A DNA stretch of 60,053 bases, counting the filler, from Basidiobolus ranarum (taxonomy: Eukaryota): assembly GCA_040143965.1 (NCBI GenBank). It is 13 parts of 13 records of this genome, joined end to end, with 100 filler letters (N's around TTAATTAATTAA, not from the genome) between each part and the next. Parts side by side here need not be neighbours in the genome. Positions count along the whole stretch, not along the records: positions 13,911 to 18,444 come from JASJQH010001925.1; 12 more parts are not named here. One strand, given 5' to 3'. The position numbers were made by a program, and so were the translations under genes. The notes beneath the pieces were generated by a model. The model was not told the origin of the DNA and made no database searches. It was given only the letters and a program-made list of their open reading frames with translations. Numbering within the stretch: position 1 is the first letter of the stretch; each line of letters begins with the position of its first letter. Positions 4,539 to 44,628 of this stretch are shown in pieces.

Positions 4539-4638
4539 NNNNNNNNNNNNNNNNNNNNNNNNNNNNNNNNNNNNNNNNNNNNTTAATTAATTAANNNNNN
4601 NNNNNNNNNNNNNNNNNNNNNNNNNNNNNNNNNNNNNN
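4539..4638. other. Artificial contig spacer (N44-TTAATTAATTAA-N44)
   Basis: Identical 100-nt spacers also at 9175, 13811, 18445, 23075, 27705, 32333, 36959, 41582, 46203, 50821 and 55439. The core puts stops in all six frames. Confidence 0.99.
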
Positions 4639-4859: not shown

Positions 4860-7590
4860 ATCATCTGAAATTGGCTGATAAGCTACTTTTTATCTGATTA
4901 GGAGCTTCTAGATCATTTATGGCTATAATCAAGTCTTCTATACATAGTGCCAAGATAAGAATCTTATTTCCTGCTGTTTGGATAAGAATACTGTGATCTG
5001 CTGCCCATTTTTGGAACTCCAATGATTTCAAGTAGTTATATAACTTGCTGAACAATGCCCTGAGTACTTGTTTGAGCCAATATGGTGATTTTTGTAGCTT
5101 ACAGAACATATCCATATAGGGCTTCAAATGGAGTAAAATATTCTAGTAATCTGGTTGGGCATCTGTTTTTGATATATACTGCAGTGCAGACAAATACAGC
5201 TCAATATTGGTAATCTAACTTTTGATCACGTAAACTTGATCTTGCCATCTCCACTATGCTTCTGTTGGCATGTTCTGCAACTCCATTGTGATGTGGAGTA
5301 TAAGGTACAGCAGTTTCTTGCTTAATTCCATGTTTATGACAAAAACTATAAAAGTCTTCAGAACAGTATTACCCAAAATCATCACTCCTTGGTACCATTG
5401 TTTTTGTGCTCATTTTCTTTTACCTTTGCTCTGTAGTGCTTGAATGTAGCTAAGGCTTCAGATTGTGATTTGAGAAAGAATACCCAAGTATTTCCTGTTT
5501 TGCATTGATAAAGGTCATAAGGTATCTCCCCTAACAAAAAAATTTTAAATTTGCATTTCATACTATTTTCTGACTGTTTCATAATGTTATTATGCTGGTA
5601 TTGCAACAATTTTCTTATGGTTTCTCTGCCAGTCTGTTTTTCCTCCCATTTTCTTATGGTATTTCTACCCCTATATCTGTGTTTTCTCTGGTTTTCCTCT
5701 GGTATTCATTCCCAAATTTTTCATAGGGCCTCTTGCCACCTAGTAATATGTTTTTCCTGGGCCTACATAGGTCAAAATGAATCAGGGCTAAATTCTGAGT
5801 GGATTTGATCTCTCCAGAGCTTGAACATGGCTGTCTGCAATATTTTCCATATATGCAACCTACACACAGATCCAATTTGGTGATACTTTTGATTTCTAAG
5901 CCTGAAACAAGCTGATTTTTGATTGTTTGGGTACATTTTTGTTCCCCAATGTGGCCAAATCTTATATGCCATGTTTGACACCTTATTATGCTGGTTTTGG
6001 CCAAGTTTGCATACTCAGAATGCAATTTGTTGCTTTCTAGCTTGTGTATATTTTGAGTTTTGATCCCAGTAACAAATTACTATTATTCCAATCTGTGATT
6101 GTGCATCCAGACTTGCTGAATACAAGGTTTAGTCCTTGAGTTGATGCTTGACTTACTGATAGTAGATTCTCGGCTGTATTTGGTACATAGAGTACATCAT
6201 CCAATTTTGCAGACTGTGTAGCTGAAGTTTGGTCTAAATTGAGCACAACTGTATCCTTACCAACTGATTCTAGTGCATAGTCTTCACCTTAGTAGAATTT
6301 CCTTGTTTGATGGGCTATGAGCTAGTAAACCAATCTTTCTTGTTCGACATATGCTGGAAAGCTCCTCATTCAATGTACCAGGTTTTTGGGTCTTCCTCAG
6401 TGGTTGCTGAAAGGCAGACACAAGCAAATGATCCCTATTGGTGCTTAATTGCTTTGCTTGTTCCTATTTTAGCTTTTTGACAAATACTCTGATTCTGCAA
6501 TCTTTGATTAATTGCCCTGATCTCTGGCCATACTTGCAGATGAGTGATTTCCTATTAAGGGCACCATTGTTGAAGCTCAATGGATGTTTTACAGCTCCTA
6601 AAAATGCCTGATCTGCATTATTTTGCTGAGAATTAAATCTCCTTGATTCCTCATTCCAAAGTCTGGCACCAACAAATTCCATAGTTGATCACTCTGATCC
6701 TGATTCTAGGGCAAGTATGATATCCCTAAACTCATCTGGCAGGCTCCTAAGTAGTGTCATGACTGAGTAATCTGCATCCAGAGATGCTCCAATGGATGAG
6801 AGCTGAACTGCCATAGCCTTTATCCAACTTATACAATTAGCATAAAATCAAAAGAATTTGTCCAATTTGAGAGCATTTGTTGCTCAAGATATGGTGCATT
6901 AGCCAGATTTCAGTCTCATAAAGTGTCTCAAGCACTTCTCACACAGTTTAGATGTTTTTGGCTGAGTGTATGTGCCTCAATTGAGAGTCTCTGAGATGAA
7001 GACAGAGCATAGTGAGTGCCTTCCTTGGCTTCTTGTGAAAGGCAATGATAGCTTCTGGTAGTCTCTTTGGCTCTATTTTTTCTCCTGTAAAAAATCCCAA
7101 AGCTCCTTGTCTAATAGCACCATATGCATCTTGAACTTCCAAAGGTGAAAGTCTTCATCATCAAACTTCTCTGTGGATGCAAAACATTTGTATTAGTACT
7201 GGTAGATATTTCTTTAACAGCTGGCTTGGGCCACATAACCTGTTGAAAGTATGTTGGGGATTTGGCAGTATTTTGGACAAGATTCAGATTTATGAATTAG
7301 ACAATTGAGTATCATTGAATTGAATATGTCCTATTTATAGTTTACTATGTAATAGGACTATTGGACATGCTTAGATGATTGCCAACATGCCTGCTAATAC
7401 ATGGGTGAGAATGTGAGGTGACTTGGAGAAGTTTGAAAAAAGTAGTTAAAATTGGTAAAAGTGATCTGACTGCTATTTCTATTGGTTAGAGCAATAATCA
7501 CATGCTTTTGTATGAGAGAATTGAGTGCTACATAATCGTAATATGATGTATACTAGGTACTAAATAATAGGTTGCTTTTTACCCATCTTC
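4860..7590 (-). mobile_element. Degenerate Ty1/copia LTR retrotransposon (family A): LTR about 7241-7590, PBS, gag, protease, integrase and RT remnants
   Basis: EKFDDEDFHLWKFKM gag start; DDVLYVPNTAENLLSV protease region; WHIRFGHIG...CVGCIYGK GAG-pre-integrase; LALIHFDLC integrase start; RT fragment LQKSPYWLKQ. Many stops and frameshifts. Confidence 0.9.
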
Positions 7591-8989: not shown

Positions 8990-9274
8990 GCTTGAAGTAC
9001 AAGTTGACCAGGAGATTCATGCTCTAAGTCTTGAGTAGCTATAAGTTTTATAGAGTCTTGTACAGCTGAATTGCATACCATATAACTTGATGGCAGCTTT
9101 TTCAGGATGGTATTGGAGTTTGTGTTTTTTTCTGATATATTAGGTGAATACAGCCTTTGCCACTGCTTATTAGTNNNNNNNNNNNNNNNNNNNNNNNNNN
9201 NNNNNNNNNNNNNNNNNNTTAATTAATTAANNNNNNNNNNNNNNNNNNNNNNNNNNNNNNNNNNNNNNNNNNNN

Positions 9275-11707
9275 GTTGCTCTCCGATCTTTTCAAGAGTT
9301 CCGTTCTGAAGTTGCCGCTCAAGGATTGAACAGCATCATCAACAATGATTGCTCTGTTATACGTCAGTATTCCTCGCCCAATACTCGTGATCCTCTCCTA
9401 GAGGATATGCTAATGATGGAGCGTGGCTATGTTGCTGAATATGATGTTCCATTCGAAGATATAGTTCCAGGTGATTGGATTAAATTACGGGCAGGTGATT
9501 TGATTCCTGCAGACTTGCAATTGTTGGAATCCAAAGATCTATTCATCTCACAAGCATCCCTGACTGGAGAGGCCATGCCTGTAGAGAAGTCGGCGTCTGA
9601 GAGGACTGTGGGGCTATCTGCTGCAGGAGGGGTACCTAATTCGATGCTTGAGGAATGTGGACTAAACAGACCTGACATGTGCTTTATGGGTACTAACGTG
9701 GTTAGTGGGGTCGCCACCGGCGTAGTTAAAGCCGTTGGTACTAGCACTGTCTTGGGTGCAACGGCTAGACAGTTATCAACCCAGCGTCCAATTAATGCCT
9801 TTCAAAAAGGCATCCGAAGAATCAGTTATCTTTTCATGGGTATCATGATTATAATGGTGCCATTGGTATTTATCATATCTGGTTTTACAAATCACGATTG
9901 GGTACAGACTGCATTGTTCGCTGCTTCGGTGGCTGTAGGGTTAACACCCGAAATGCTACCTATGATAGTAAATGCAAATCTAGCTCGCGGCGCTTTGGCC
10001 CTCTCCAAGAGAAAATGTATTGTGAAGAAGCTGGATTCTATCATCAATTTGGGCGGAGTCGATATTCTCTGTACAGATAAAACCGGTACGCTGACTGAGG
10101 ATAAAGTTTCTCTGGTAAGCCATTTAGGGTTTAAAGGTGAAACTTCTTTCTTACCTTTGGAATTGGCCTTTTTAAATTCTCATTTTCAAACTGGCCTAAA
10201 GAACTTGCTGGATGTTGCTGTAATGGACTTCTTTCATAAGGACCATTACATGCCCTTGGATAGATATTCTAAAGTAGATGAAATACCTTTCGATTTTGTC
10301 CGACGAAAGCTGTCAGTGGTAATTCGAGATCAATCTAAACTAAACGATTTGTTAATCACGAAAGGGGCTGTGGACGAACTGTTAGACTCTTGCTCAAAAA
10401 TATTTATAGGTAATATTACCACTTCTAACCCCGCCAGTGAAGGTGTAACTTTACCTACAGATGAAATTGTCGATCTGACCGGGGAGTATACAACAAAGTT
10501 ACAAAATCTGAACAATGAGTTAAACGAGGATGGTCTTCGTGTGATAGCAGTTGCATATCGCTACATGGATAGTGATCATAAGGATCTTACGATTGCTCAT
10601 GAAACTAATATGATATTTGCCGGATACATTGCTTTCTTGGACTCACCAAAACCGAGTACTACCCAAGCTATTCGTGAGTTACGAGAAAATGGAATCACTA
10701 TCAAAGTTTTGACCGGAGATTCTGCTGCAGTGTGCAAAAAGGTTTGCAATGAAATACAACTCCCCATTAATTCTGTGGTCACTGCCACAAATCTTGAGAA
10801 TTTGACTAACGAAGAATTCTCGGCTATTGTTGAGGAGGCCACAATCTTTGCTAAGCTTACTCCATTACAGAAAGCTGAGGTTATACGGGCATTAAAAGCT
10901 AATGGACATGTTGTTGGGTTCCTTGGAGATGGTATTAATGATGCACCCGCACTTCGTGAAAGTGATTGCAGTATATCGGTTGATACCGGTGGTGACATTG
11001 CGAAAGAATCAGCCGATATTATTCTTCTGGAGAAAGATCTGATGGTGCTGGTGGCTGGTGTTATACGTGGTCGTATCACTTATGGAAATACTATCAAGTA
11101 CATCAAGATGGCAGTTTCTTCTAATTTTAGTAATGTCCTCAGTATGTTGGTAGCCTCAATCTGGCTACCATTCCTTCCGATGCTTCCTATACAGGTTCTG
11201 GTACAAAACTTACTCTATGATATCTCACAAATGGCTATTCCCTGGGACAATATGGATGACGAGTTTTTACATTCGCCACAAGCATGGTCTACCAAAGGAA
11301 TTCTCAAGTTTATGCTATTCATAGGACCAATCTCGTCAATCTTTGACATCATTACTTTCATCTTCATGGTGTTTTATTTGGAAGCCAATGCACCAGAGCA
11401 ACAATCCCTCTTCCAAACTGGCTGGTTTGTTATTGGACTACTCACTCAAACGTTAATTGTTCACATGATCCGAACCCCTCTCATTCCGTTTATCCAGAGT
11501 CGCGCTTCCTTACCACTATTATTCTCTACTGCCACTGTGATGCTCATCGGCTTTGTTATTCCATTCACGCCAATCAGAGATTCCCTCTCTATGGTGGTTT
11601 TACCAGGAATGTATTACCCGTACTTGTTTTCAGTGTTAGCCGGCTACTGCTTACTAGCGCAAATGGTTAAAGTAATATATATTCGGCACTTTAGGACCTG
11701 GTTATAA
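9275..11707 (+). CDS. mgtA: Mg2+-transporting P-type ATPase, P3B (MgtA/MgtB-like), 5'-truncated
   Basis: TGEAMPVEK, PEMLP (P3B TM4 motif), DKTGTLT, PFDFVRR, GDGIND, QNLLYD, FQTGWF, LTQTLIVHMIRT, PFIQSRAS. The frame is open from the contig start, with no introns over 2.4 kb. Confidence 0.93.
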   Translation, partial: VALRSFQEFRSEVAAQGLNSIINNDCSVIRQYSSPNTRDPLLEDMLMMERGYVAEYDVPFEDIVPGDWIKLRAGDLIPADLQLLESKDLFISQASLTGEAMPVEKSASERTVGLSAAGGVPNSMLEECGLNRPDMCFMGTNVVSGVATGVVKAVGTSTVLGATARQLSTQRPINAFQKGIRRISYLFMGIMIIMVPLVFIISGFTNHDWVQTALFAASVAVGLTPEMLPMIVNANLARGALALSKRKCIVKKLDSIINLGGVDILCTDKTGTLTEDKVSLVSHLGFKGETSFLPLELAFLNSHFQTGLKNLLDVAVMDFFHKDHYMPLDRYSKVDEIPFDFVRRKLSVVIRDQSKLNDLLITKGAVDELLDSCSKIFIGNITTSNPASEGVTLPTDEIVDLTGEYTTKLQNLNNELNEDGLRVIAVAYRYMDSDHKDLTIAHETNMIFAGYIAFLDSPKPSTTQAIRELRENGITIKVLTGDSAAVCKKVCNEIQLPINSVVTATNLENLTNEEFSAIVEEATIFAKLTPLQKAEVIRALKANGHVVGFLGDGINDAPALRESDCSISVDTGGDIAKESADIILLEKDLMVLVAGVIRGRITYGNTIKYIKMAVSSNFSNVLSMLVASIWLPFLPMLPIQVLVQNLLYDISQMAIPWDNMDDEFLHSPQAWSTKGILKFMLFIGPISSIFDIITFIFMVFYLEANAPEQQSLFQTGWFVIGLLTQTLIVHMIRTPLIPFIQSRASLPLLFSTATVMLIGFVIPFTPIRDSLSMVVLPGMYYPYLFSVLAGYCLLAQMVKVIYIRHFRTWL

Positions 11708-13810: not shown

Positions 13811-13910
13811 NNNNNNNNNNNNNNNNNNNNNNNNNNNNNNNNNNNNNNNNNNNNTTAATTAATTAANNNNNNNNNNNNNNNNNNNNNNNNNNNNNNNNNN
13901 NNNNNNNNNN

Positions 13911-14337
13911 ATAATCCCGAACCCAGCTTTCCCGCACCGGTCAGACCCCCCACCCCCCACACCAGCAATCCCAGCAACTCCACGACCAGTACCCCAGTAT
14001 TCAGCAGAAGTTTGATGACCAGCCTTGACGGAGACGGCATAGGCTTGACGCTTGTTCTTGGCCATGTTGGTGTGAACGAATCTCACGATATCAGGACGGA
14101 TAGGGGCCTTGAAGACAGCGGGAAGGGTGACAGTGGCAACGGAGCCATTGCCGGCTTCAGAGAAGACGTTAATAGTAGGTCTAGCGGCCGCAGACTATAA
14201 AAAATAGAGTTAGACATGAAATGATTTCAGTAGTAGACGCTTACCATCCAATCACAGTGTAGTAATGATGACAACTGGTGATGGATGGGTAATAGTCGGA
14301 TGGATGAATACTAGTGTAGATGATTAGGACATACCAT
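13911..14337 (-). CDS. RPL4: 60S ribosomal protein L4 (uL4), 5' part; exon 1 is ATG only (14337-14335), intron 14334-14195
   Basis: [15 protein letters not shown]...[47 protein letters not shown]. The last ~70 nt before the gap diverge from consensus and are probably low-quality contig end. Confidence 0.95.
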
Positions 14338-14776
14338 TTGAGAAATCTACCAAAATACGGAGGGGATATGGAAAGAAGGACGGTTAATTGATAATTCACC
14401 ACTCAAATACTTGGCCCACTTCCATCATCCCCTTCAATTTCAATTTTTTGACATGATTATGTCGGGGCCATGGTTAATTTTGGAAAATTTTATCTGTAAA
14501 AAAAAATTCAAATCTTGCTTAGATGTAATTTAATGTATCAGTGATTCTACCGATTCTACGCCATACAAACAGTATTTACATACAATATCCACACCATGCA
14601 AATAATAGATAATGGAGGTGTATATATGGGTACGGTATGTATGGATGTACACATGACTAGCGAAAAGAAACCAACATTTACAACACGATGTTTATGCCAT
14701 AATACACTGAAATGGTGTGAGCGTTTATTTCATCAAATAGGGTGAGAGAAGGGAGATAAGGAGGTATTTAGTTTGT

Positions 14777-15602
14777 TTAAGCACTGGAGTGGCAAAGGAT
14801 CTTGGTCAATTGTTCGAACTTGATGTTTTCAGTAATAACAATTTGTTTGGCTTCATTGTCCTTATTGAGGGGGATTGTTACATTCTCCTCTTGCTTGGTC
14901 CAACCTTGTTCCTTGACGAAGTTTTCAAGTTCTTGTCCCTTAATGTTCAAGTATCCCTCAAGGTGCTTCAAAGAAACTACTTGATAAGTGATGGCAATGT
15001 TTTTGGCGATCATGGTACGAATTTCTTTTTCAAAGCTAACTACATCACTAAGTAATTCTTTATAGTCGCTATCGCTTCCAATCTTGCTCCAGAATTCTTC
15101 ATAACGAGCCTCTTCAAGGATCTTGTGGAGGGAAACAACCTTAGCTACGGAGGCTTCGCTGATCTAGGTAAAGTTAAGGAATAAAAATACTAGTGGGAAA
15201 TAAACTGGGCTATCAAAATTTTGGGTAAGGATACGATTTGTTCGTTTAACAAATACAAACAGAGGTTGAAGTCAGAGTTAGGAATAGCAGTCAGAGCCTT
15301 GATAAGAATGCTGCACACGATTTGGTGGTTAACAAGTTGAGGATTGAATTGGTACCTGAAGTGAAGGGTTTCAATATTAGTATTCTATTTAGTGATGTTA
15401 TCGGGATAAACGAGGTTTATCAATATTCAAAGAGAAGTATGTCATACATTTTCAAGATGGCCAAGTTAGCCATCAAGTCGTGTTCTTGACCAGAGCATTG
15501 AAGAGCAAGATACTTCTCCAAAGCGGGCAAGTTCTCTGGGTTATAACGTTCAACACTGTTGATGATCTTCTCGATGTTCTCTGGTCTAATTGAAGAGTTC
15601 AT
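14777..15602 (-). CDS. eIF3k: Translation initiation factor eIF3 subunit K, 3 exons
   Basis: ERYNPENLPALEKY...DLMANLAILKMYQFNP and C-terminal ENIKFEQLTKIL, with GT-AG introns. Confidence 0.92.
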
Positions 15603-16405
15603 ATTGAATAAATATATTAAAGAAAAGAAACACCTTCAGTCAATAAGGAAAAAAACCAAGCCAGACAAAAAGTCAACTTGAAAATTTCCCATTTTTTTCT
15701 AAAAAAAAATCCCCCCTCCCCCGATGCTAGTGAATTCTCTTTTTTTACTGTTGATTTTTCCCTCGTCACTTACTTGCATTTTTAACCTGATTTTAATCAA
15801 CTTTTATTCAACTTTCGTAATTGATTTACTGCTGAGTCGGTGTCGGGTCTGATCGTAGCAACTCATATTCGATTACGAAGTCTGGTTTTATAAAGAATTC
15901 AGGCTTACTTAATCACACATGCGACAAGTGAGACGAATTGGTCATGCTCGGGTAGAACGGGTAGCTGAACAGGTGGTACAGTTGATATGATCTGATGCTA
16001 TCCTATTTATGGAGCATCCAATATAGGCTGGGAGAGCCTTGGTGATGTAGCGGGTGTCTAAGTGGATGTGAGTTCGGAATTGGTTTATCTTTCGACAGTC
16101 ACGAGTTGTATATTGACTAATGTGTCCTACCACGGAAACTACTGTCTATACAGTACTAGATGGTGTAATTACCTGGCATGATTGCAGAAGTGTTGCTATT
16201 TAAAGCGGTAAAATGCTCCATCAATCGCTGTCTGCAGTGATTTTGATAGATTTTCGAGATTCTATTAGTTATCCATCGTTTCTAAATTAGACCCTATCTT
16301 ATCAACTCTACCAGATCACTTCATATATTTTCCACTAGTCCTTTTTTCTCTTCCAAATATTCAATTCTACTTTTTTTAAACCTTATTCTTTCGTTTACAA
16401 CTAAG

Positions 16406-17447
16406 ATGTCCACTAAAGCGAAGTTAACTCCCTTTGGAGATGCGGTTGCTGGAGCTGGTGGTGCTCTTCTCGCTCTCGCGGCGGTGTACCCATTAGACAT
16501 GTAACCTTCCCATTTACTTGATTTCCTTGTCTTAAGAATTTTCCACTTATCCAATTCTTCAGTATTAAGACACGTATGCAAGTTCAATCCAAGTCCGAGG
16601 AGTCCTATACTTCCACATGGGACGCTTTCGTACGTATTCTTAAGGAGGAAGGAGTCGGCGGCTTATACGCTGGTTTACCTGCCGGTTTAATCGGAGTAGC
16701 TAGTACCAATTTTGCTTACTTTTATTGGTATTCTTTACTTCGTGGTAGTTATTCACGTAAAGTACAAGAGATTTCCACCTCTATGGAGCTAGTATTAGGT
16801 GCTGGTGCTGCCGCATTAGCACAAATTTTCACTATACCTGTTTCAGTTGTAAGTACGAGACAACAAACCACACCACCTAGTGAGCGTGGTTCATTATGGC
16901 AAACCTGGTTGGATATTGTCGAAGAGGAAGGTTGGACTGGCCTCTGGAAAGGATTAAAACCATCATTAGTTTTGGTGGTTAACCCTGCCATCACATATGG
17001 TGCTTTTGAGAAGATAAAGAGTGGTTTCCTGGCTAGATCTGGAGGTAAAGCTTTATCAGCATTGGAGGTGTTCTTGGTTGGTGCTTTAGCTAAAACCGCG
17101 GCGACATTAATCACCTACCCTTATATTATGGCGAAGGTTAGATTGCAATGGAAACCACCCAAGAATGCTGATACATCTAAACATCATGAACGATACAATG
17201 GTGCCATAGATGTATTAAAGAAAGTCTGGAAAAAGGATGGACTCAAAGGACTTTATAACGTAAGATAGATTTCTATGGAAACATTACTATAACTCACATA
17301 CTCATCTTTCTCATTATCTAGGGCATGGACGCACAAATTTATAAGGCTGTACTTTCACAAGCATTGCTTCTTATGCTTAAAGAAAAATTATCCATTTATA
17401 CTTTACTCATGTTTGCTCTATTCAACAAAAGAAAACTGAAGGTTTAA
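16406..17447 (+). CDS. ANT1: Peroxisomal adenine nucleotide carrier (SLC25; ANT1/PMP34-like), 3 exons
   Basis: MSTKAKLTPFGDAVAGAGG...YPLDIIKTRMQ, STNFAYFYWY, LVLVVNPAITYGAFE, TYPYIMAKVRLQ, KAVLSQALL. Introns at about 16501-16562 and 17260-17320. Confidence 0.9.
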
Positions 17448-17699
17448 TCTGGAATGTCCTTATTTGAAATCCCCTCCCACGCCACACCACACTTACACCA
17501 CCTCACACTCTAAAATTCTCGCTATATATATATATTCGTTCACAATTCTTACGATCTTTCTCAGAAAATAAATTCGGTTAGAGCTGTGGAATCTATATAT
17601 AATGAAATTTTGTATGGGGACATATCACTTTCTAAACTTAGCATCTAAAGAAAATTCCCGAGTACCATTGTTTGCTTCCTCTACCATTATCTCAGTTCA

Positions 17700-17925
17700 A
17701 TATTGGATAAATAGATACTGAGCTATATGTCACTATATAAGTGTTTAGGTTATACTTATTTCAACAAAGATATCCCCCATTATTCTCAATTGGAATTTAC
17801 TTACAATATTTCTACCAACTTAGAAGTTCTCTGATATATAGATTTTGATAACTTGTGCTAGAAGCCCTAAACTCTGTACACATGCTCCTCAGACCTTCCT
17901 TAACACATTCTACATATTAGACTTG
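17700..17925. repeat. Family-B LTR fragments
   Basis: GATTTTGATAACTTGTGCTAGAAGCCC...GACCTTCCTTAACAC is shared with 18545-18803, 19051-19260 and 46670-46950. Confidence 0.75.
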
Positions 17926-18357
17926 TTCCATTGGACCAGGTCAGATTGTGCCACCTAATCCAGCTTGCAAACACACTATCTGGTGTAATCTGTCAGTTAC
18001 CATTTAATAGATTAGCCACATGATTGGACACTATAAGGAACAATATGGCACCATCCCACCACATTTGGACACAGTGATTTTTTTGGAAATATCATGCCAG
18101 CTTGTACCAAGTTACCCAATTTAGTGCAGCCAAATCAAGATTTTGGGTAACTGACAGTTCAAGTTCATCACCTAATTTGTAACTTACCATTTCTTGAATG
18201 TGTAACAATAAACAATTTATACTATAACTTATGTAATCAAATGTGCAAGCAAGATATTTGCATATTTATAGATCAATCATTTATCTTTTGTTCATACAAT
18301 ATCCAGATCTTTGATTGGGCCCTGTTGAAATTATTGAAATTATTTAGGGAGAAATAT

Positions 18358-18430
18358 TGGTCTGGCCAGGATTTGAATCTGGGACCTCCTTCACTCTAGC
18401 AAGGTGCTCTAACCACTGAGCTACCAGTCC
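18358..18430 (-). pseudogene. tRNA-like sequence (tRNA pseudogene or tRNA-derived module)
   Basis: Minus strand reads GGACTGG TA GCTC AGTGGTTA GAGC A CCTTG CTAGAGT GAAGG AGGTC CCAGA TTCAAAT CCTGG CCAGACC A. This folds as a cloverleaf with an A box and a decayed B box, one mismatch in each of the acceptor, anticodon and T stems, anticodon AGA and a short variable loop. Confidence 0.8.
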
Positions 18431-18544
18431 TTATATGCTATGCCNNNNNNNNNNNNNNNNNNNNNNNNNNNNNNNNNNNNNNNNNNNNTTAATTAATTAA
18501 NNNNNNNNNNNNNNNNNNNNNNNNNNNNNNNNNNNNNNNNNNNN

Positions 18545-25153: not shown

Positions 25154-27704
25154 TGTTGCAGTAGATAAAGAGCAACTGATTATTTAGTAGTTAGCTTATT
25201 GATGTTTTGATTATTTAGACCCAATTTGTCTATTCAAATACATGTGTTCCTTGCTCCAATAGATAGAGATATCAATTAGATTACATTTACCAATTTCAAC
25301 TATTTTGGCAAAACCTCTCCAAATTACCTCAAACTGTCACCCATGCTTAACAGGCATGTTTGTCAAGATCTAAGTACATCCATTAGCCAATGTAGCAAAG
25401 TAAAAGTAGGAAATATCAAATTCAATAAATTTTAAGTGTCTAATGCACAAATCCAAATCTTGTCCTAAACAATTCAAGTCCTCTAAACACTTTGATCAAT
25501 CTATGAGCTCCAAGCTGGCTGTTAAAGGAATGATTACTAGTTTCATTACCAGTACTTTTGCATTCACAGAGAAGTTTGATGGTGAAGACTTTCACCTTTG
25601 GCAGTTCAAGATGCTCAAACAGAAGGACCTTTACAGATTTGTTTTAGGAGTTGAAATAGAGCCAATGAGACTACCAGATGCAATCCTTACCTTTCACAAG
25701 AACCAGAGGGGAGTACTCTCCACACCTTGTCTCCATTTCAGAGACTCTCGATTGAGAAACACAAAATTGGCCAAAATGTCCAAACTACTTCAGGAACATT
25801 TGCAGGACAATAGGAGATCAAAGCTCTGGCTAATAGACTACATCTTAGGTGAGAACAATTCTCTCTTCAGATGAGTTTACATGATTCTATGGCTAGTCAT
25901 ATGAATTGGATGAAAACTATGGCAGAACAGCTCAGATCCATTCAAGAACCTCAAAATGAAGATAAATTAGTCATAACTGTACTTGGTAACCGGCAAGCCA
26001 AGTTTGGCATCATCATAAGTGCCCAACAAACAAGATAGGAGTCATTGACAATGGAATATGTTGGTGCTTGGCTTTCAAATGAGGAGACAAGATGATCTAA
26101 TTCTCTGCAAAAAAAAGCAGATCAAGGATTTTTGTAGCTGAAAAACATCCAACAGGCTTCAATAATGGTGCCCCCAGAATGAAATTATCCATCTGCAAGT
26201 ATTGCATGAGACCAGGCCAATGAATCAAAGATTACTAAGAAAGAATTTGTGCTAAAGAGCTAAAATTGGAACAAGCTAATCAAGTACACATTGATACAGA
26301 TCATCTGTTTATTTCTGCCCTATTGGTAACCACTGAGGAAGACTCAGAAATGTGGTACATTGATTCAGGAGCTTCCCAGCATATGCCAAACAAGGAAGGT
26401 TGGTCTTCTAGCTTAAAACCCATCCAAGTAAGTAAAATCTACTTAGAAGTTGACTATGCACTAAATCCTGTTGGTAAGGGCACAGTTCTACTCAATCTAG
26501 GCCAAATTTCAGCTACCCTATCTACAAAATTGGATGATGTACTTTATATATCAAATACAGCCAAGAATGTATTCTTGGTAAGCTAAGCAACAGCTTAAGG
26601 ACTAACTTCATGTTTGGCAAGGCTGGATGCACTATTGCAGATCAAATCATATTATATTAGCTACTGGGGTCAATACTCAAAGCCAATGCAAGCTAGAAAT
26701 CAACTAAGTGCATTCTGAGCATCAAACATGGCCAAAGCCCTTTGAAATAAGCCGCTATACAAGATCTAGAAATTGGGGCCACATTGGGGAACAAAAACTG
26801 ACCCCAATTATTATAAAGTAGCTTGATTCAGGATTAGATATTGAAAATATCACCAAATTGATCTGTATGAAGGTTGCATAAACAAAAAATTCACAGATAG
26901 CAGTTTTCAAGTCCTGGTGAGATCAAACCCAATCATAATTTTTCCCTGATTTATTCTGGCCATTGTGGGCCCATAAAAAATGTCTCAATTTGTGGCAGAA
27001 GGTACTTCATGAACTTTTTTGATGACAAAACATGATAAACTTTGGTATTTTTTTTCAAATTCACATCTGAAGCCTGAGCTCCTTAAAGCACTACAACACA
27101 ATGGTTGAGAATGATTCAGCACAAAAAATAGGGGTACTGAGTAGTGGTCATGGTGGACAATACTGATCTAAAGACTTTGCTAGATTTTGCCCCAAAAATG
27201 AAATTAAGCAACAAACTACTGTACTTTAAACTGCACAGCAGAATGGAATTGCAAAGTGTACTAATAGGACCAAAGTGGGGATGGCAAGATCAGCTCTTAC
27301 TACATCAGAGAAAGATTCAGGATCTCAGAGATCATCCAGAAGCAGAAATTCGGTGGGGAGCTGGCAGCACACTTCCCATGATGGAATATATACTTGCGTC
27401 ACATTCTGTAATGAGCCACAGACTTTAGTTTGAGCACAGGAGTGTCCAGAATCAAATTCATGTGCAAACATAATATCTGATGAGTTTTCTTGACTTCAGG
27501 ACTTTTGAAATTAGGTATATAAACACTCATTATTTAGTAGTTAGTTAATCATATTCTGATTATTTAGTGCTCAATTCTGTCATTCAAAAACATTTGTTTA
27601 TTGCTCTAATTCATAGAAATATCAATCAGATCACTTTTATCAATTTTCACTATTTTCTCAAATCTTCTCCAAATCACCTCAAATTTTCACCCGAGCTTAA
27701 CAGG
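25154..27704 (+). mobile_element. Degenerate family-A copia element: LTR 25154-25498, PBS, gag, protease, integrase remnants, partial LTR about 27510-27704
   Basis: EKFDGEDFHLWQFKM, WYIDSGASQHM (protease), DDVLYISNTAKN and integrase remnants. Colinear with the element at 4860-7590. Confidence 0.9.
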
Positions 27705-33249: not shown

Positions 33250-35085
33250 GTATTTCCATCAAACCCAGAAATATGTGTTTCTTATTTTTTGGATCAAATT
33301 TAGATCAATTTCTAGTTATAATTTTGGCATAAGCAATGCATATAAAGTTCCTTAAATATTTTACATCAGGTTTAAGTCCAAACCACACTTGATAGGGTGT
33401 AAAGTTACACAGATTTTGGAGTAAAACTCCTACTCCTCAGATATATTGCTGTAGCAACAGAATCCACTCAAATATTACAAGATATATATGATGCATTTAT
33501 CATTAATCTTGCTGTTTCTACTCTAGTCCTGTTAACTCTTGCAGCAACAAAGTTTTGCTGAGATGAATAGGGGCAGCAGCTTCTTGCTTGAATCCATGAG
33601 CTTTGCAAAAGTGATTAACCAGTGTTGAAGTATATTCTCCACCATTATCAATACAGAGTTTCTTGATTCAGGTTCCAGTGTCAGTCTTGACAAGTATTTT
33701 AAAGTATCTAAGGATAGGGTGAGATTCATTTTTTCTTTCCAAAAAGTAGAACAAGGTGTATCTTGTATAATCATAAATAAAAGTGATTAAATATTTTTTC
33801 TTTCTCAAGGAAAAAATTTTGCCTAGGTTCACACAAACCTGAATGAATTAGATCCAATTTTTTGACAAATTTGATTAAGCCAGAGCACTTGAATAGTTTC
33901 CTGGCTTGGTTTCTATAAATATAACCCTCACAAATTTCATTATGGTTGGAGGGTTGATTTGAATACCAGAAATTAGGTAATTTGTGATAATTTTGCCCAA
34001 AAAAGCAAATCTAATATGGCCAAATCTCATATGCCATAATTGAATAGTTTCTTAATTGAAATATCTTATGTTTGCACATAAGCATCATGGATTATATGTA
34101 TGTTTGTAAAAGTTCCAATCCACTTCTCCTGAAGCTAAATAATTCCCATTTTGATCAGTGATGGTGCATCCTGACTTATCAAAATAGAATTTTAGCACTT
34201 CTGAAGTAACCTTGTATACAGATATTAAGTTCTTGCCATTATCTGGAACATGTTGCACATCCTCAAAAGTGTACACTTTCTCTTGAGAAGCTAGTTTTAA
34301 ATTGACTTGAATTGTTCCCATTCCAATTGCATCCAATGTATGGTCTTCTCCCATGAAAACCTTGCTTGGGATTTATTCTTGATCCACAAACCAATATTTT
34401 TCATTTGTGAAATGTTGGGAGGCTCAAAAATAGTATACCACATCAGAAAATACTTGTTGATAGTCATGGATAGAGCAGATGTGAACAAGTTATCATCCAT
34501 TGTAACAACATTTCTAGATTTCATATGTTTTTACTTCTTTTGCAATTCTTTTAGAGCAACCTTTGCTTACATGGCCAGTACTTTTACAGTAATTGCAAAA
34601 TGTGAGATATCTCTTCTGGAAGTGCTTTGACCTTTAAAGGATAGTTTCCCATAGCCTATTAAAGCATTTTCTGCATTCTGTTGTTTGGATCCTAATGTAC
34701 ATAAATCTCATCCAGAAGTATGCCAAATAATTAGTTTAGGGGCAAATTTTCAGTTCAGGATTCTAGAGACATTACTAAGCTCTGAAACTTGTGTGACAGG
34801 CTATTCAGGACTGCAACTATGAGGCTTGATTAGTAGTAGGAACTTCCATGCATACTGTTTCATCCACCAAACTAGCATTGCTATTAATTAGTGATTTAAA
34901 TTATTCTCCTGACTGCATCTTAAAATTAAAGAATTGTCTTGTTAGAAACATCTTCTTGATGGCAGAATACATTTGGTGGTTGTCTTCTAAGGCTTTCCAT
35001 GCCTTCTTAGCAGTTTTATCTCTAGAACATTGAATTAGCAATTTGTCTTTAACATTCAGACAAATTGTGTTAAAGGCACATTCTT
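33250..35085 (-). mobile_element. Degenerate copia gag-protease-integrase remnant
   Basis: FEDVQHVPDNGKNLISV fragment and integrase-like remnants with multiple frameshifts. Confidence 0.8.
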
Positions 35086-37058: not shown

Positions 37059-38240
37059 ATTTGAAACCTGATTTGCTTATTCTGACTTCTCATATTTGTT
37101 GTAATTTCTTGATTTGCTATCTTTTAACTGGTGTCCTGCTTTGTTACAACCATAGCATAAACCTGGTTTCCTTCTTCTGTAACCTTTGTACTTGCCAAAG
37201 CTATATTTTCCAGCTCCAAACAGAGCCACTTCCTCAGATTCTTTTCCAAATTCTTACTTCTGAGGTGTTGATCCATTAGTCTTGCCACCACAAACTCCAA
37301 AGATAACTTGTCAGATCTTGCTTCCAAAGCTGTGACCAAGTTTGAATACTGTTCTGGTAGACTACTTGGAAGAGTTATAATGATACTTTCTTCCTGTAAA
37401 GCTGCACCAATATTTTCCAATTGTTTTGCCCAAGATCTCACATATGCACTATGAGTAACCATGCTTTCAGACTCTTCCATCTTTAGATTGAAGAATTTTT
37501 GTCGGCAAAAGAGTCCATTAGCAAGACTCTTTTCTTCATAACACTCTTCCAATATAGTCCAAGCTTGATGGGAAGTCTTTGCATATTGAATATTCACAAG
37601 ATATGAGTCCTTCAAACTTTGACAAATGATATTAAAGGCCTTCTTGTCTCTTTTCTTATATGCTTCCAATAAAGAAAGATCAGAAGGTTCCTTTTCATCT
37701 CCAGAGACTATATCCCAAAGCTCTCTGTCTTCCAGCATGATTTGCATCTTGAACTGCCAGAAATGTAATTTTCTCCATCAAGCTTTTCAACACTTGAGTT
37801 AATAGAAGTGATAGTAGTGGTTTCGGTCATGCTGTAAAGGTTAGAACATGGGGCTCATAGCCTATTGGGAAAATATAGGCTGTTTGGAGGAACTTTAGAA
37901 AAGTGGAGTTGTGAATAGCTGTGTGAGATAATTATTTATTATCCCAAAATGCAGCATTTATACATTTTGGTAGAAATACAGAGAACTAACCTTGAGGTTG
38001 TGTTCAGAACATCTGTGGGAGTAAAATGAGCTATCTTTGGGGCAATTTGGATGAGCTTGAAATCTCCAATATGGAATTGCTAATTCTCACATTATTCACA
38101 TATATATATAATATCTGTTCCAATTTGCAGTTAAGTTCTATTTGGCCAAGTAATCTTAACCAACTTATATGTGATATATGAATTAGTTATATGTATAAAG
38201 ATAGAGATAATAAATATGATAAAGACAATAAACTCCAACA
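37059..38240 (-). mobile_element. Copia 5' end (family D): LTR 38240-37863, PBS GGCTATGAGCCC, frameshifted gag
   Basis: VEKLDGENY, FKMQIMLEDRELWDIVSG, AWTILEECYE and SLPEQYSNLVTALE (copia gag/UBN2-like). Confidence 0.92.
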
Positions 38241-39291: not shown

Positions 39292-41044
39292 ATGGTTAGC
39301 ATCACTAAAATAGCTTGGCTGCTTCTAGTAAGCACTTCCGCTAACACGGTCAACAGTGCTCCAAGTAAGCATACTGTACTACATATATTATTACAAATCC
39401 AACTAATACTCTTTATCTCTCAGTCAATGAAGGTTCTTCTGTTGGGAAAGTTAATTTGGCTGTTGGCAAGAATGGTGCCGTCGCTGCTGACTTGCAAATA
39501 TGTTCCAAAGCGGGGGTGCAAATTTTGAAGAGTAATGGGAATGCCGTTGATGCTGCAATAGCCACTGCATTGTGTCTTGGTACAGTTAATAGTTTCTTGT
39601 CGGGTATTGGTGGTGGTGGCTTCATGACTATTTGTTCCAGTAATGGTACAGTTGATTTTATCAACTTCAGAGAATCAGCACCAGCTGGTGCGTCAACCGA
39701 GATGTTTAAAAATCAACCTGACGCCTCCCAGGTTGGTGGTCTTGCTATTGGCATACCTGGAGAAATTTGAGGTTTTGAGTTGGCTCATAAAAAATACGGT
39801 TGTATCTTATGGGATAAATTATTTCAACCGTCGATTCGACTTTCTCGTAATGGCTTCCCAGCAACGGAGCAGCTCGCAATCAAATTACAACTTTATAAAG
39901 ATTTAATCTTAAATAATTCAGCTTTCAGAGAAATTTACGCACCTCGGGGAGATGTCTTGAGAGTGGGGGAGCTGGTAAAGAGGTCCCGATTTGCAGGCAC
40001 ATTGGAAGAAATAGCCAGGAATGGACCTGATGCGTTCTATATGGGGAAAATTGCTAATTTAATTGTGAAGGCGATTCAAAATGCTGGTGGGATCATTACT
40101 TTGGATGATCTAAGCACGTACCAAGCAGTATCATAGCCTCCACTTGTAGGCTGCTATCAAGGTCATAAAGTCATTGCTGCACCACCACCTGCAAGTGGCT
40201 CAGTTGTTCTCTCAGTATTGAATACTCTAGAAGGATACAATCTTCCAACCGATAAACTGAGTGGTGTTAATCTTCATCGCGTTATTGAGTCATTCAAATA
40301 TGGTTATGCCCAGCGTACGTACCTTGGGGACCCCAATTTTACCAACACAACAGCCAAGATTGCTGAGATGTTATCAAAGGATCAAGGAATTCTAAGATGG
40401 CATAACATCTCAGACATAAGAACTTTTCCAGTTGAATATTACCAACCGAATTACCAGCATAAAGATACCCCAGGCACCACTCATTTATCCACCATGGATA
40501 AAGAAGGTGGAGCAGTTGCGTTGACTTCCACTATCAACCTTGAATTTGGATGCAAAGTTCTAGATCATGAAACTTGTATTGTTTTTAATAATACATGGAT
40601 GATTTCTCCACTCCTGGATTGGTCAATGCATTTGGATTCCTTCCATCGCCAGCCAATTTTATTCAACCTGGCAAACGTCCACTCTCATCCATGTCACCAA
40701 CCATAATAGAGACCGACAGGTATCCATCGTTAGCGGTTGGTGCTAGTGGTGGTAGTTACATAACAACTGCAACAATCCAAGCCATTCTCAGTATATATGA
40801 TTTGGCTGAAAGCATTGATAAAGCGATTGCTGCTCCCCATGCTCATCATCAGCTAATGCCAGATGAAGTGACTGTAGAGCCACAATACGCTGAACATTAC
40901 ATTAAGTCTTTGGAAGCACGTGGACATAACGTTACCCAGTTGACTACCACAAAATGTGTTGTCCAAGCAGTTGCCAGACTACCAAGTGGATACTTCAATG
41001 CTGCATTGGATTCCAGAAAAAGAGGAGTTGCTGTTGCTTTCTAG
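39292..41044 (+). pseudogene. GGT: Secreted gamma-glutamyltranspeptidase pseudogene
   Basis: GNAVDAAIATALCLG, SGIGGGGF, NFRESAP, GTTHLS (nucleophile Thr), MDDFS, PGKRPLSSMSP. Lesions: TGA 39768-39770, TAG 40134-40136 and a 1-nt frameshift near 40590. One intron near 39365-39423. Confidence 0.9.
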
Positions 41045-43386: not shown

Positions 43387-44628
43387 ATTGAGTTATAATA
43401 CTAGAGAACAGGCCGAAGTAACGATAAACTTGATGCTATAGTAATAGTTATCTTTTAGAGGACAGACTGTCTTACCCCAACCAAAGAAAGTTACCCGGAT
43501 TGGGGCCCCAAAACCACTCTGCAATCAAAGCAACAAAATAACTCTAAATAGGCCCCACAGAAATACATTTATTTTATTATTGTCATCATAAATTGAGTTG
43601 ACTATACCGATTTGTCGAGCGCATGGCTCTGACAGCTGTCATTTACCTGCGATGTAAACTAGAACCAAAGTTGTGTTAAATCGTGCCTAACTATTTGTTT
43701 AAGGCACTGCGATGAATCTACTGCCTATCTTGCAGAATCTCAAAATCACTTTTACACCGCACATCCATTACAACCCTAAATTGATCACCCGTCATGAGTG
43801 ACCAAGATCCACATACAATTTTAATCCTGACATTGAGTGTGACGATCAACCAAATAATGCCAAATCTCTTCATCTCCAGATATTTCATCGCACCTCTGAA
43901 TCCACGCTTATCTGCTCATATGAAGCTTGAGTATTCTGTGGATGCATTACGCATCATACAACAGGAAAAAGTGAAACTTGAGGAGCATTCAGTTGTCATA
44001 TCATCTCTATGAGAGAATTCTGTTGTTGTCCGCTGCATAGAAGATTAGTATTACAAGTGGTTGTTCTATCAGTACTGCCCTCACTCGCTAGATATCGCTC
44101 TATCTAAATCAGTGCAGGTACTTTTAACGGCATTTTCATTCTCTGTAGAGACAGAAGGCCTAGCATGTGGTATAGAATATTATCCAAATGTAATGGACAC
44201 CATTTCCTTATTGAAACAGGCGTTCCATCCGACTTGAACGAATGTATATTTAACTGTAACTGAATAACACTGATTTATACATAGCAGTGTTTGGTCATTG
44301 TATTACAAGATTAAAGATCTTGTCAATAGGAAGATCATCTCTACTGCGATGATTTGCTATATCTATTCGAAAATCACACAATGTTGGTACGTACATACTG
44401 AGTATGCCACACAAGTGATGTTTCGGTTCGGAGTAATGCAACTTTCCCAAGGCAATCATATGAAATATATGTATGTATATATGGGTTAATCCTAGTTTAT
44501 TCTGGTGTCCTTGTGATTGGTATATTGAGATGGTAGAAGATTAGATTCAATGCTGATGCTGTACTACGAAATATATTCCATATAAATATGTAGAATATCC
44601 CGTAGTAATGTTAAAGTTTCTAATTACA

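Follow-up and report, generated by a model that had tools for sequence, protein, structure and literature searches.

A predicted hairpin in the start-codon intron of the uL4 (RPL4) gene of Basidiobolus ranarum: a possible passive, self-excluding insert

The ribosomal protein uL4 belongs to a family for which negative feedback is known in other organisms. E. coli L4 controls the S10 operon through the S10 leader. In yeast, Rpl4 (old name L2) induces the cleavage of its own transcript (review PMC6884704, citing Presutti 1995), and RPL4 mRNA is under co-translational control or decay (PMC8970588), as described in the available text of both sources. This known uL4 feedback consists of mRNA cleavage or decay, or of bacterial control of transcription or translation, and none of it works via splice-site choice. 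For other ribosomal proteins, splicing-level control is established. According to the available text of PMC8047918, eL30, uS4 and eL22 repress their own splicing via structures near splice sites, which agrees with the statement in a preliminary description of the present locus that several ribosomal proteins regulate their own splicing. The available parts of two further papers report that a 5'-UTR intron is needed for RPS22B autoregulation (PMC7732827), and that the RPL22 intron is an allosteric switch involving an alternative 5' splice site (PMC13630204). In the available text of PMC8047918, the proteins named as splicing-autoregulated do not include uL4; the term uL4 is absent from this review, and RPL4 occurs in it once, within RPL42. 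No report of RPL4 splicing control was found among the papers listed by our literature search.

Intron structures can also be related to splicing in a more passive way. In S. cerevisiae, a zipper stem is defined by linkers of at least 10 nt and at least 20 nt whose sum is 42-85 nt, and in yeast introns, stems show an enrichment over cryptic splice sites and a depletion at genuine ones (both from the available text of PMC12350175). Ribosomal protein genes are enriched in start-codon introns, which in fungi are slightly longer than the background, as far as the available text of PMC1626468 describes them. We analysed a predicted hairpin in the start-codon intron of the uL4 gene of Basidiobolus ranarum and compared it with these systems.

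The window, by which we mean the whole analysed stretch of 60,053 bases (GC 0.375), is made up of 13 contigs, each about 4.53 kb long, placed end to end. Each junction is a linker with 44 N on either side of TTAATTAATTAA (24 such N runs were counted), for example at 4539-4638, 9175-9274 and 13811-13910. Because the contigs are merely joined by these linkers, genes on the two sides of a linker have no genomic adjacency. Of the 105 frames in the window that are open for 75 codons or more, 82 were scanned with Pfam, and the matches indicated ordinary fungal genes. The intron with the hairpin is located in the contig at 13911-18444, which also carries an eIF3k-family gene and a mitochondrial carrier (Pfam), together with a tRNA at 18358-18430 (Rfam).

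The uL4 gene lies on the minus strand. Its start codon ATG (14335-14337) is the sole coding part of exon 1, and exon 2 (13911-14194) was identified by translation, protein match and Pfam. Joining the two gives MSAAARPT. The best of 2,494 protein hits, obtained from 2,606 candidates, was uL4 of Basidiobolus meristosporus (P0002), which is 90% identical over the first 70 residues; the next-best hits came from Mucorales and other early-diverging fungi (70-86% identical). The B. meristosporus protein begins with MSAAARPV, so the join M|SAAARP is right. Over exon 2 as a whole, 77 of 93 residues are identical to P0002, and the mismatches are concentrated past residue 65. There, from about 13999 downwards (residue 66 on, about 90 nt), the frame becomes G-rich and garbled and departs from the conserved uL4 sequence, which looks like a low-quality contig end and not like real divergence. 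The gene is truncated at the contig end (13911). Only a fragment is thus present in the contig, and for this reason the Pfam Ribosomal_L4 match on exon 2 (E = 1.3e-05, 25.3 bits) stays slightly below the cut-off of 25.8. In the leader, no other ATG was found within 80 nt upstream of 14337-14335, and 20-40 nt upstream of the first ATG there is a pyrimidine-rich tract.

Intron 1 (14195-14334, minus strand, phase 0) was read from the sequence and recomputed by script. It is 140 nt long, with the consensus outer donor GTATGT at 14334-14329, a branch point CTAAC at 14213-14209 and the acceptor TAG ending at 14195. Its position is ordinary: as in the start-codon introns of PMC1626468 (available text), it separates codons 1 and 2, in phase 0, in a conserved, short ribosomal-protein gene. 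A metagenome scan with exon 2 as query gave at least 61 uL4 loci, most of them cDNA-like, and the start-codon intron position was inspected in 19 of these. Among the 19, ATG|GT was present at the same position in L025, L040, L042 and L058, and L003, L005, L006 and L007 begin directly after AG. Only the hairpin and the duplicated ATG|GT are peculiar to the Basidiobolus intron.

The length of intron 1 was compared with that of other introns in the window. Two heuristic searches gave 37 and 12 candidates, which were noisy and mostly not trusted; five introns were accepted as convincing since they belong to Pfam-supported genes or have long flanking frames, and they measure 59, 60, 61, 61 and 62 nt. 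Against this small heuristic set, the 140-nt intron 1 is unusually long.

Inside the intron, a second ATG (14247-14245) is directly followed by the donor-like GTAAGC (14244-14239), and an acceptor-like CACCAG stands at 14280-14275. The minus-strand reading and the script thus placed the ATG-only exon, the 140-nt intron and both inner sites exactly where the preliminary description had located them. In about 118,000 strand-bases the pattern ATGGTA[AT]G[TC] was counted 7 times, twice within the uL4 gene, and its expectation is 0.008 per 130 intron positions. When translated, the isoform using the inner donor turns the first ATG into an 8-codon uORF (MVCPNHLH*), as had been proposed. The second ATG opens the native frame, but the N-terminus is spelled MSAAARPT with three alanines and not MSAAR as first written. 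The use of both inner sites would insert 30 nt in frame, dividing the intron into 60, 30 and 50 nt, and the translation then continues with MSAAARPT as predicted. The intron lengths of 60 and 50 nt had been called normal sizes for the genome. This holds for the 60 nt, which lies within the 59-62 nt cluster, but not for the 50 nt, which is shorter than every plausible window intron save one doubtful 37-nt candidate.

Branch-point options bear on the form with two inner sites. CTRAY motifs are present at two places only in intron 1, positions 8-12 (CTAAT) and positions 122-126 (CTAAC). The upstream 60-nt mini-intron has no CTRAY except the one starting 7 nt past its donor. This sole branch option is 10 nt from the donor, which is sterically implausible, so the three-exon isoform is unlikely. 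The idea of a 30-nt cassette micro-exon between introns of 60 and 50 nt was rejected on the same ground, as its upstream intron lacks a usable branch point.

Minimum-free-energy folding of the minus strand predicted a hairpin of 63 nt and 22 pairs at 14236-14298. Its 5' arm (14274-14292) contains the CACCAG and its 3' arm (14241-14258) contains the inner ATG and GTAA. An earlier claim of a bulged stem of about 17 bp matched this fold, in which these two arms form 17 Watson-Crick pairs with three 1-nt bulges. Core pairs are arranged as 5+5+4+3+2 around the bulges, with a 10-nt loop and 3 outer pairs. The free energy of 14298-14236 was -19.0 kcal/mol (z = -3.0; 1 of 200 shuffles was as stable), for a segment that had been picked post hoc. 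In a 263-nt pre-mRNA context, the pair probabilities of the stem were 0.3-1.0 and mostly at least 0.9. The paired probability in this context was 0.99-1.0 for the inner ATG and 0.5-1.0 for the CACCAG; positions G+1 to A+4 of the inner donor were paired at 0.95-1.0, and +5 and +6 were unpaired. The true branch point was open (0.11 paired). The structural part of the masking claim was therefore borne out at the level of prediction, since the hairpin covers both ATG|GTAA and CACCAG. When the whole intron was folded, as had been proposed as a check, its stability was only moderately unusual (z = -1.46; 14 of 200 shuffles were as stable).

The inner ATG|GTAAGC could be a site in regular use, either because both donors are constitutive or because transcription also starts inside the intron past the first ATG. 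There would then be two leaders for one protein, with the hairpin located in the leader or at the shorter form's 5' splice site. Consistent with this, each ATG precedes a donor and the protein is identical. GTAAG-type donors are the commonest among the plausible window introns, and GTAAGC itself heads a plausible intron at 39365 (heuristic search). The inner donor is 50 nt from the 3' splice site, which exceeds the lower limit of 46 nt estimated for fungal introns (PMC1626468, available text). On the other side, it is 34 nt from the branch-point A, compared with 41-44 nt in the three best-supported window introns; taken together, these distances make its use borderline but not impossible. Its first four nucleotides are almost always paired in the predicted stem. 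The sequence around the second ATG is unfavourable, having T at -3, and the first ATG would make a uORF in any transcript starting upstream. We regard regular use of the inner site as improbable. If the passive reading given below is true, gene-calling programs could be led astray by the inner ATG|GT, which gives it a modest relevance to annotation.

To judge how unusual the hairpin is, every 63-nt window of the 13 contigs was folded on both strands on a 2-nt grid. A 63-nt fold of -19.0 kcal/mol or lower was contained in 4.7% of 57,062 segments of 140 nt. On a 7-nt grid, 84 of 16,598 windows of 63 nt reached this value, making 48 separate loci. The hairpin is thus only moderately unusual: it belongs to the top 5% of segments and is not exceptional. 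Taken alone it is about a 1-in-20 event, and the ATG-plus-donor is about a 1-in-100 event. The two are not independent, because the inner site mirrors the 5' arm as part of a repeat architecture.

The strongest 63-nt folds of the window were found at 16424-16507 (+, -24.7 kcal/mol), 9569-9638 (+, -24.8 kcal/mol) and 43452-43563 (-, -22.9 kcal/mol), and all three exceed the RPL4 hairpin. The first of them lies in the same contig as RPL4, just upstream of the frame of the mitochondrial carrier.

These counts favour the view that the hairpin is a chance inverted repeat without effect, that its fold is absent in vivo or irrelevant, and that the inner ATG|GTAAGC is a coincidence. The shuffles of the whole intron point the same way, and the feature was chosen post hoc from a reading of 60 kb. 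This view is weakened by the very high pair probabilities in context, by a repeat architecture that is real and not random, and by the fact that a local stem of 22 bp would be physically hard to avoid during transcription. We consider chance alone an unlikely explanation.

The repeat architecture was resolved by a repeat search and a three-copy alignment. A direct repeat of 17 nt (82% identical, spacing 19; family D1) links 14280-14296 with 14299-14315, the latter being an upstream direct copy of the 5'-arm unit on the minus strand. In the alignment, the reverse complement of the 3' arm matched both direct copies. The middle of the intron thus consists of one short unit, present twice in direct and once in inverted orientation. 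TTAC(C)CAT of the 5' arm is mirrored by the inner ATG|GTAA, and ACTGTG by CACCAGT. None of the 22 pairs in the stem is a G-U pair, and the antisense strand folds slightly better than the sense strand (-21.3 versus -19.0 kcal/mol). The predicted stem, having neither G-U pairs nor a bias for the sense strand, appears to carry no signature of RNA-level selection on that strand. Since the repeats, the missing G-U pairs and the antisense fold are those expected from an inverted duplication, the sequence suggests a local tandem and inverted duplication at the DNA level as the origin. Such a local duplication would explain the length of 140 nt against the 59-62 nt of the window introns. The 19-nt 5' arm is unique in the window, where it matched only itself. 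A repeated mobile element as the source was unsupported, as blastn of the intron and leader against the window and the at least 61 metagenome loci, a small sample, gave only E values of 0.45 or higher. A further direct repeat of 10 nt (90% identical, family D2) connects the start of exon 2 (14170-14179) with 14290-14299 in the intron; the intron copy adjoins the 5' arm upstream, and this repeat is probably due to chance.

The reading we prefer, at about even confidence, is that intron 1 is an ordinary start-codon intron lengthened by local duplication, in which the hairpin is passive and not a sensor and the outer donor is used for splicing. This reading accounts for everything observed. The intron would have grown to about double the usual length via local duplication of a unit of 17-23 nt, now present twice directly and once inverted. 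Pairing of the inverted copy with the nearer direct copy would form a stable hairpin once the 3' arm is transcribed. This fold would take about 63 nt out of the path from GTATGT to CTAAC, and it would also hide the decoys made by the duplication, namely the donor-like ATG|GTAA and the AG. The intron would be spliced constitutively from the outer GTATGT, and the hairpin would act as a passive zipper or decoy-masking stem, or would be merely a tolerated self-excluding insert. In favour of the outer donor are its consensus sequence and its place behind an ATG whose leader has no other ATG within 80 nt. A beneficial stem and a tolerated one may both be compatible with this passive reading. The analysis demonstrates the sequence features, the predicted fold with its probabilities, the repeat architecture and the placement relative to the splice signals; from these we infer formation of the fold in vivo, use of the outer donor and a hairpin that is read by no protein. 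The hairpin could also form and yet be protein-bound. A point against the passive reading is the quality of the inner ATG|GTAAGC as a donor of the GTAAG type, with a motif whose chance expectation is only 0.008 per intron. One point mutation could have erased a harmful decoy, so the persistence of the inner donor might mean that it is used.

The likeness to zipper stems, for example that of S. cerevisiae RPS17B, lies in the distances. The stem starts 37 nt past the 5' splice site, and 22 nt separate its end from the branch sequence, giving a linker sum of 59 nt. These values fall within the positional definition, which comes from modelling of the S. cerevisiae spliceosome and may not transfer to this fungus. 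The predicted pairing, with 22 pairs at probabilities that are mostly 0.9 or more, also agrees with that of a zipper stem. The differences are that yeast ribosomal-protein introns measure 300-500 nt whereas the usual introns of this Basidiobolus fungus measure about 60 nt, and that the stem here is a single local, repeat-derived hairpin known from prediction.

The likeness to occluded cryptic sites, for example those under the stem of yeast RPS23B, is that a consensus-like decoy is buried in a high-probability stem and the true signals stay open. In our case, GTAAGC fits the genome's own donors, such as that of the plausible intron at 39365, and sits in a confidently predicted stem. The documented yeast cases are mostly cryptic 3' splice sites located downstream of the branch point, whereas the main decoy here is a 5' splice site with an ATG of its own, and for the AG in the other arm there is no branch point. 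Should the passive reading be true, the locus would be a tidy example outside the budding yeasts of an intron tolerating extra sequence. An inverted duplication that folds itself out and hides its own splice-like sites would be of modest interest for intron evolution.

The preliminary description had proposed an autoregulatory switch, and two forms of such a candidate element, responding to uL4 or to another factor, were weighed. In the first, the balance between the hairpin and the open form would be shifted by free uL4 or a factor towards the inner donor, producing the mRNA with the 8-codon uORF. In the second, uL4 would bind the hairpin and block splicing, as Rpl22 and eL30 do, and the retained intron would be translated up to the stop of MVCPNHLH*. 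Both forms gain from a stable stem that covers a strong inner donor together with an ATG, and from alternative products whose translations keep or destroy the uL4 frame exactly as claimed. The splicing repression by eL30, uS4 and eL22 and the feedback on yeast uL4 by other routes (PMC8047918, PMC6884704 and PMC8970588, in their available text) are precedents. Several features argue in the other direction. The hairpin ranks only among the top 4.7% of segments and the whole intron is only moderately more stable than its shuffles (z = -1.46); the stem lacks G-U pairs and strand bias, and its repeat origin makes the inner site a mirror of the arm. The three-exon isoform has no usable branch point. 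The first form would in addition need a factor able to open a stem of -19 kcal/mol, and ribosomal proteins usually bind folded RNA. Autoregulation is thus somewhat disfavoured by the features examined, and we rate it as improbable.

The regulatory elements of RPL30, RPS14B, RPS9A/B, RPL22B and RPS22B resemble the present locus, where the structure is predicted, in having a structured element near splice signals in the first intron of a ribosomal-protein gene. They differ in that protein binding and a dose response have been shown for them, and several are conserved or mimic rRNA sites. Their list does not include uL4. The narrower proposal, that the hairpin is a uL4-responsive element through which free uL4 freezes splicing or redirects it to the inner ATG|GTAAGC, is likewise improbable. 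If it were uL4-responsive, this would be the first splicing-level uL4 feedback described in a eukaryote, found in an early-diverging fungus, and a third mechanism beside the uL4 feedback of bacteria and yeast. If it were regulatory, uL4 would join the short list of ribosomal proteins controlling their own splicing, in a poorly studied fungal lineage; our results do not lift this possibility above its prior level.

Other functions of the hairpin were also considered. An intron-hosted snoRNA or a known cis-element was rejected: in the Rfam scan of contig 13911-18444 at E values up to 1, no hit fell on the gene strand of intron 1, and the sole hit in the intron, SNORD113 (21.7 bits, E = 0.9, with a gathering score of 36), lies on the strand opposite the gene. 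A thermosensor is improbable, as a stem of -19 kcal/mol should not melt at growth temperatures, and the idea of a mirtron or other small-RNA source gains no support. A similar intron was present in 0 of the at least 61 metagenome uL4 loci, which included no close relatives (best blastn E = 4.0). Among the loci listed, the amino-acid identity over the full query was at most 80%; the partial match L059 had 91% identity over residues 20-64.

Several observations were made elsewhere in the window. In the contig of RPL4, an ATG|GTAAGT is present at 18190 on the minus strand, and about 40-85 nt downstream of it lies a perfect 9-bp inverted repeat, GTTACCCAA...TTGGGTAAC. No coding frame was recognised after this ATG|GTAAGT, and the tRNA at 18358-18430 is near. 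A gamma-glutamyltranspeptidase gene at 39369-41041 (+) has continuous Pfam matches over profile positions 2-512 and is interrupted in frame by TGA at 39768-39770 and by TAG at 40134-40136, two stops that could mark a pseudogene (for example through C-to-T changes) or assembly errors. On several contigs, at 4864-6288, 26239-26583, 34088-34372 and 37127-37777, Pfam recognised pieces of copia-type LTR retroelements (gag, pre-integrase, Pol beta-barrel and RVT_2). A P-type cation ATPase occupies an uninterrupted frame of 810 codons at 9275-11704 (+), beginning at the start of its contig; this intronless frame is conspicuous, as short introns seem to be present in most genes of the genome.
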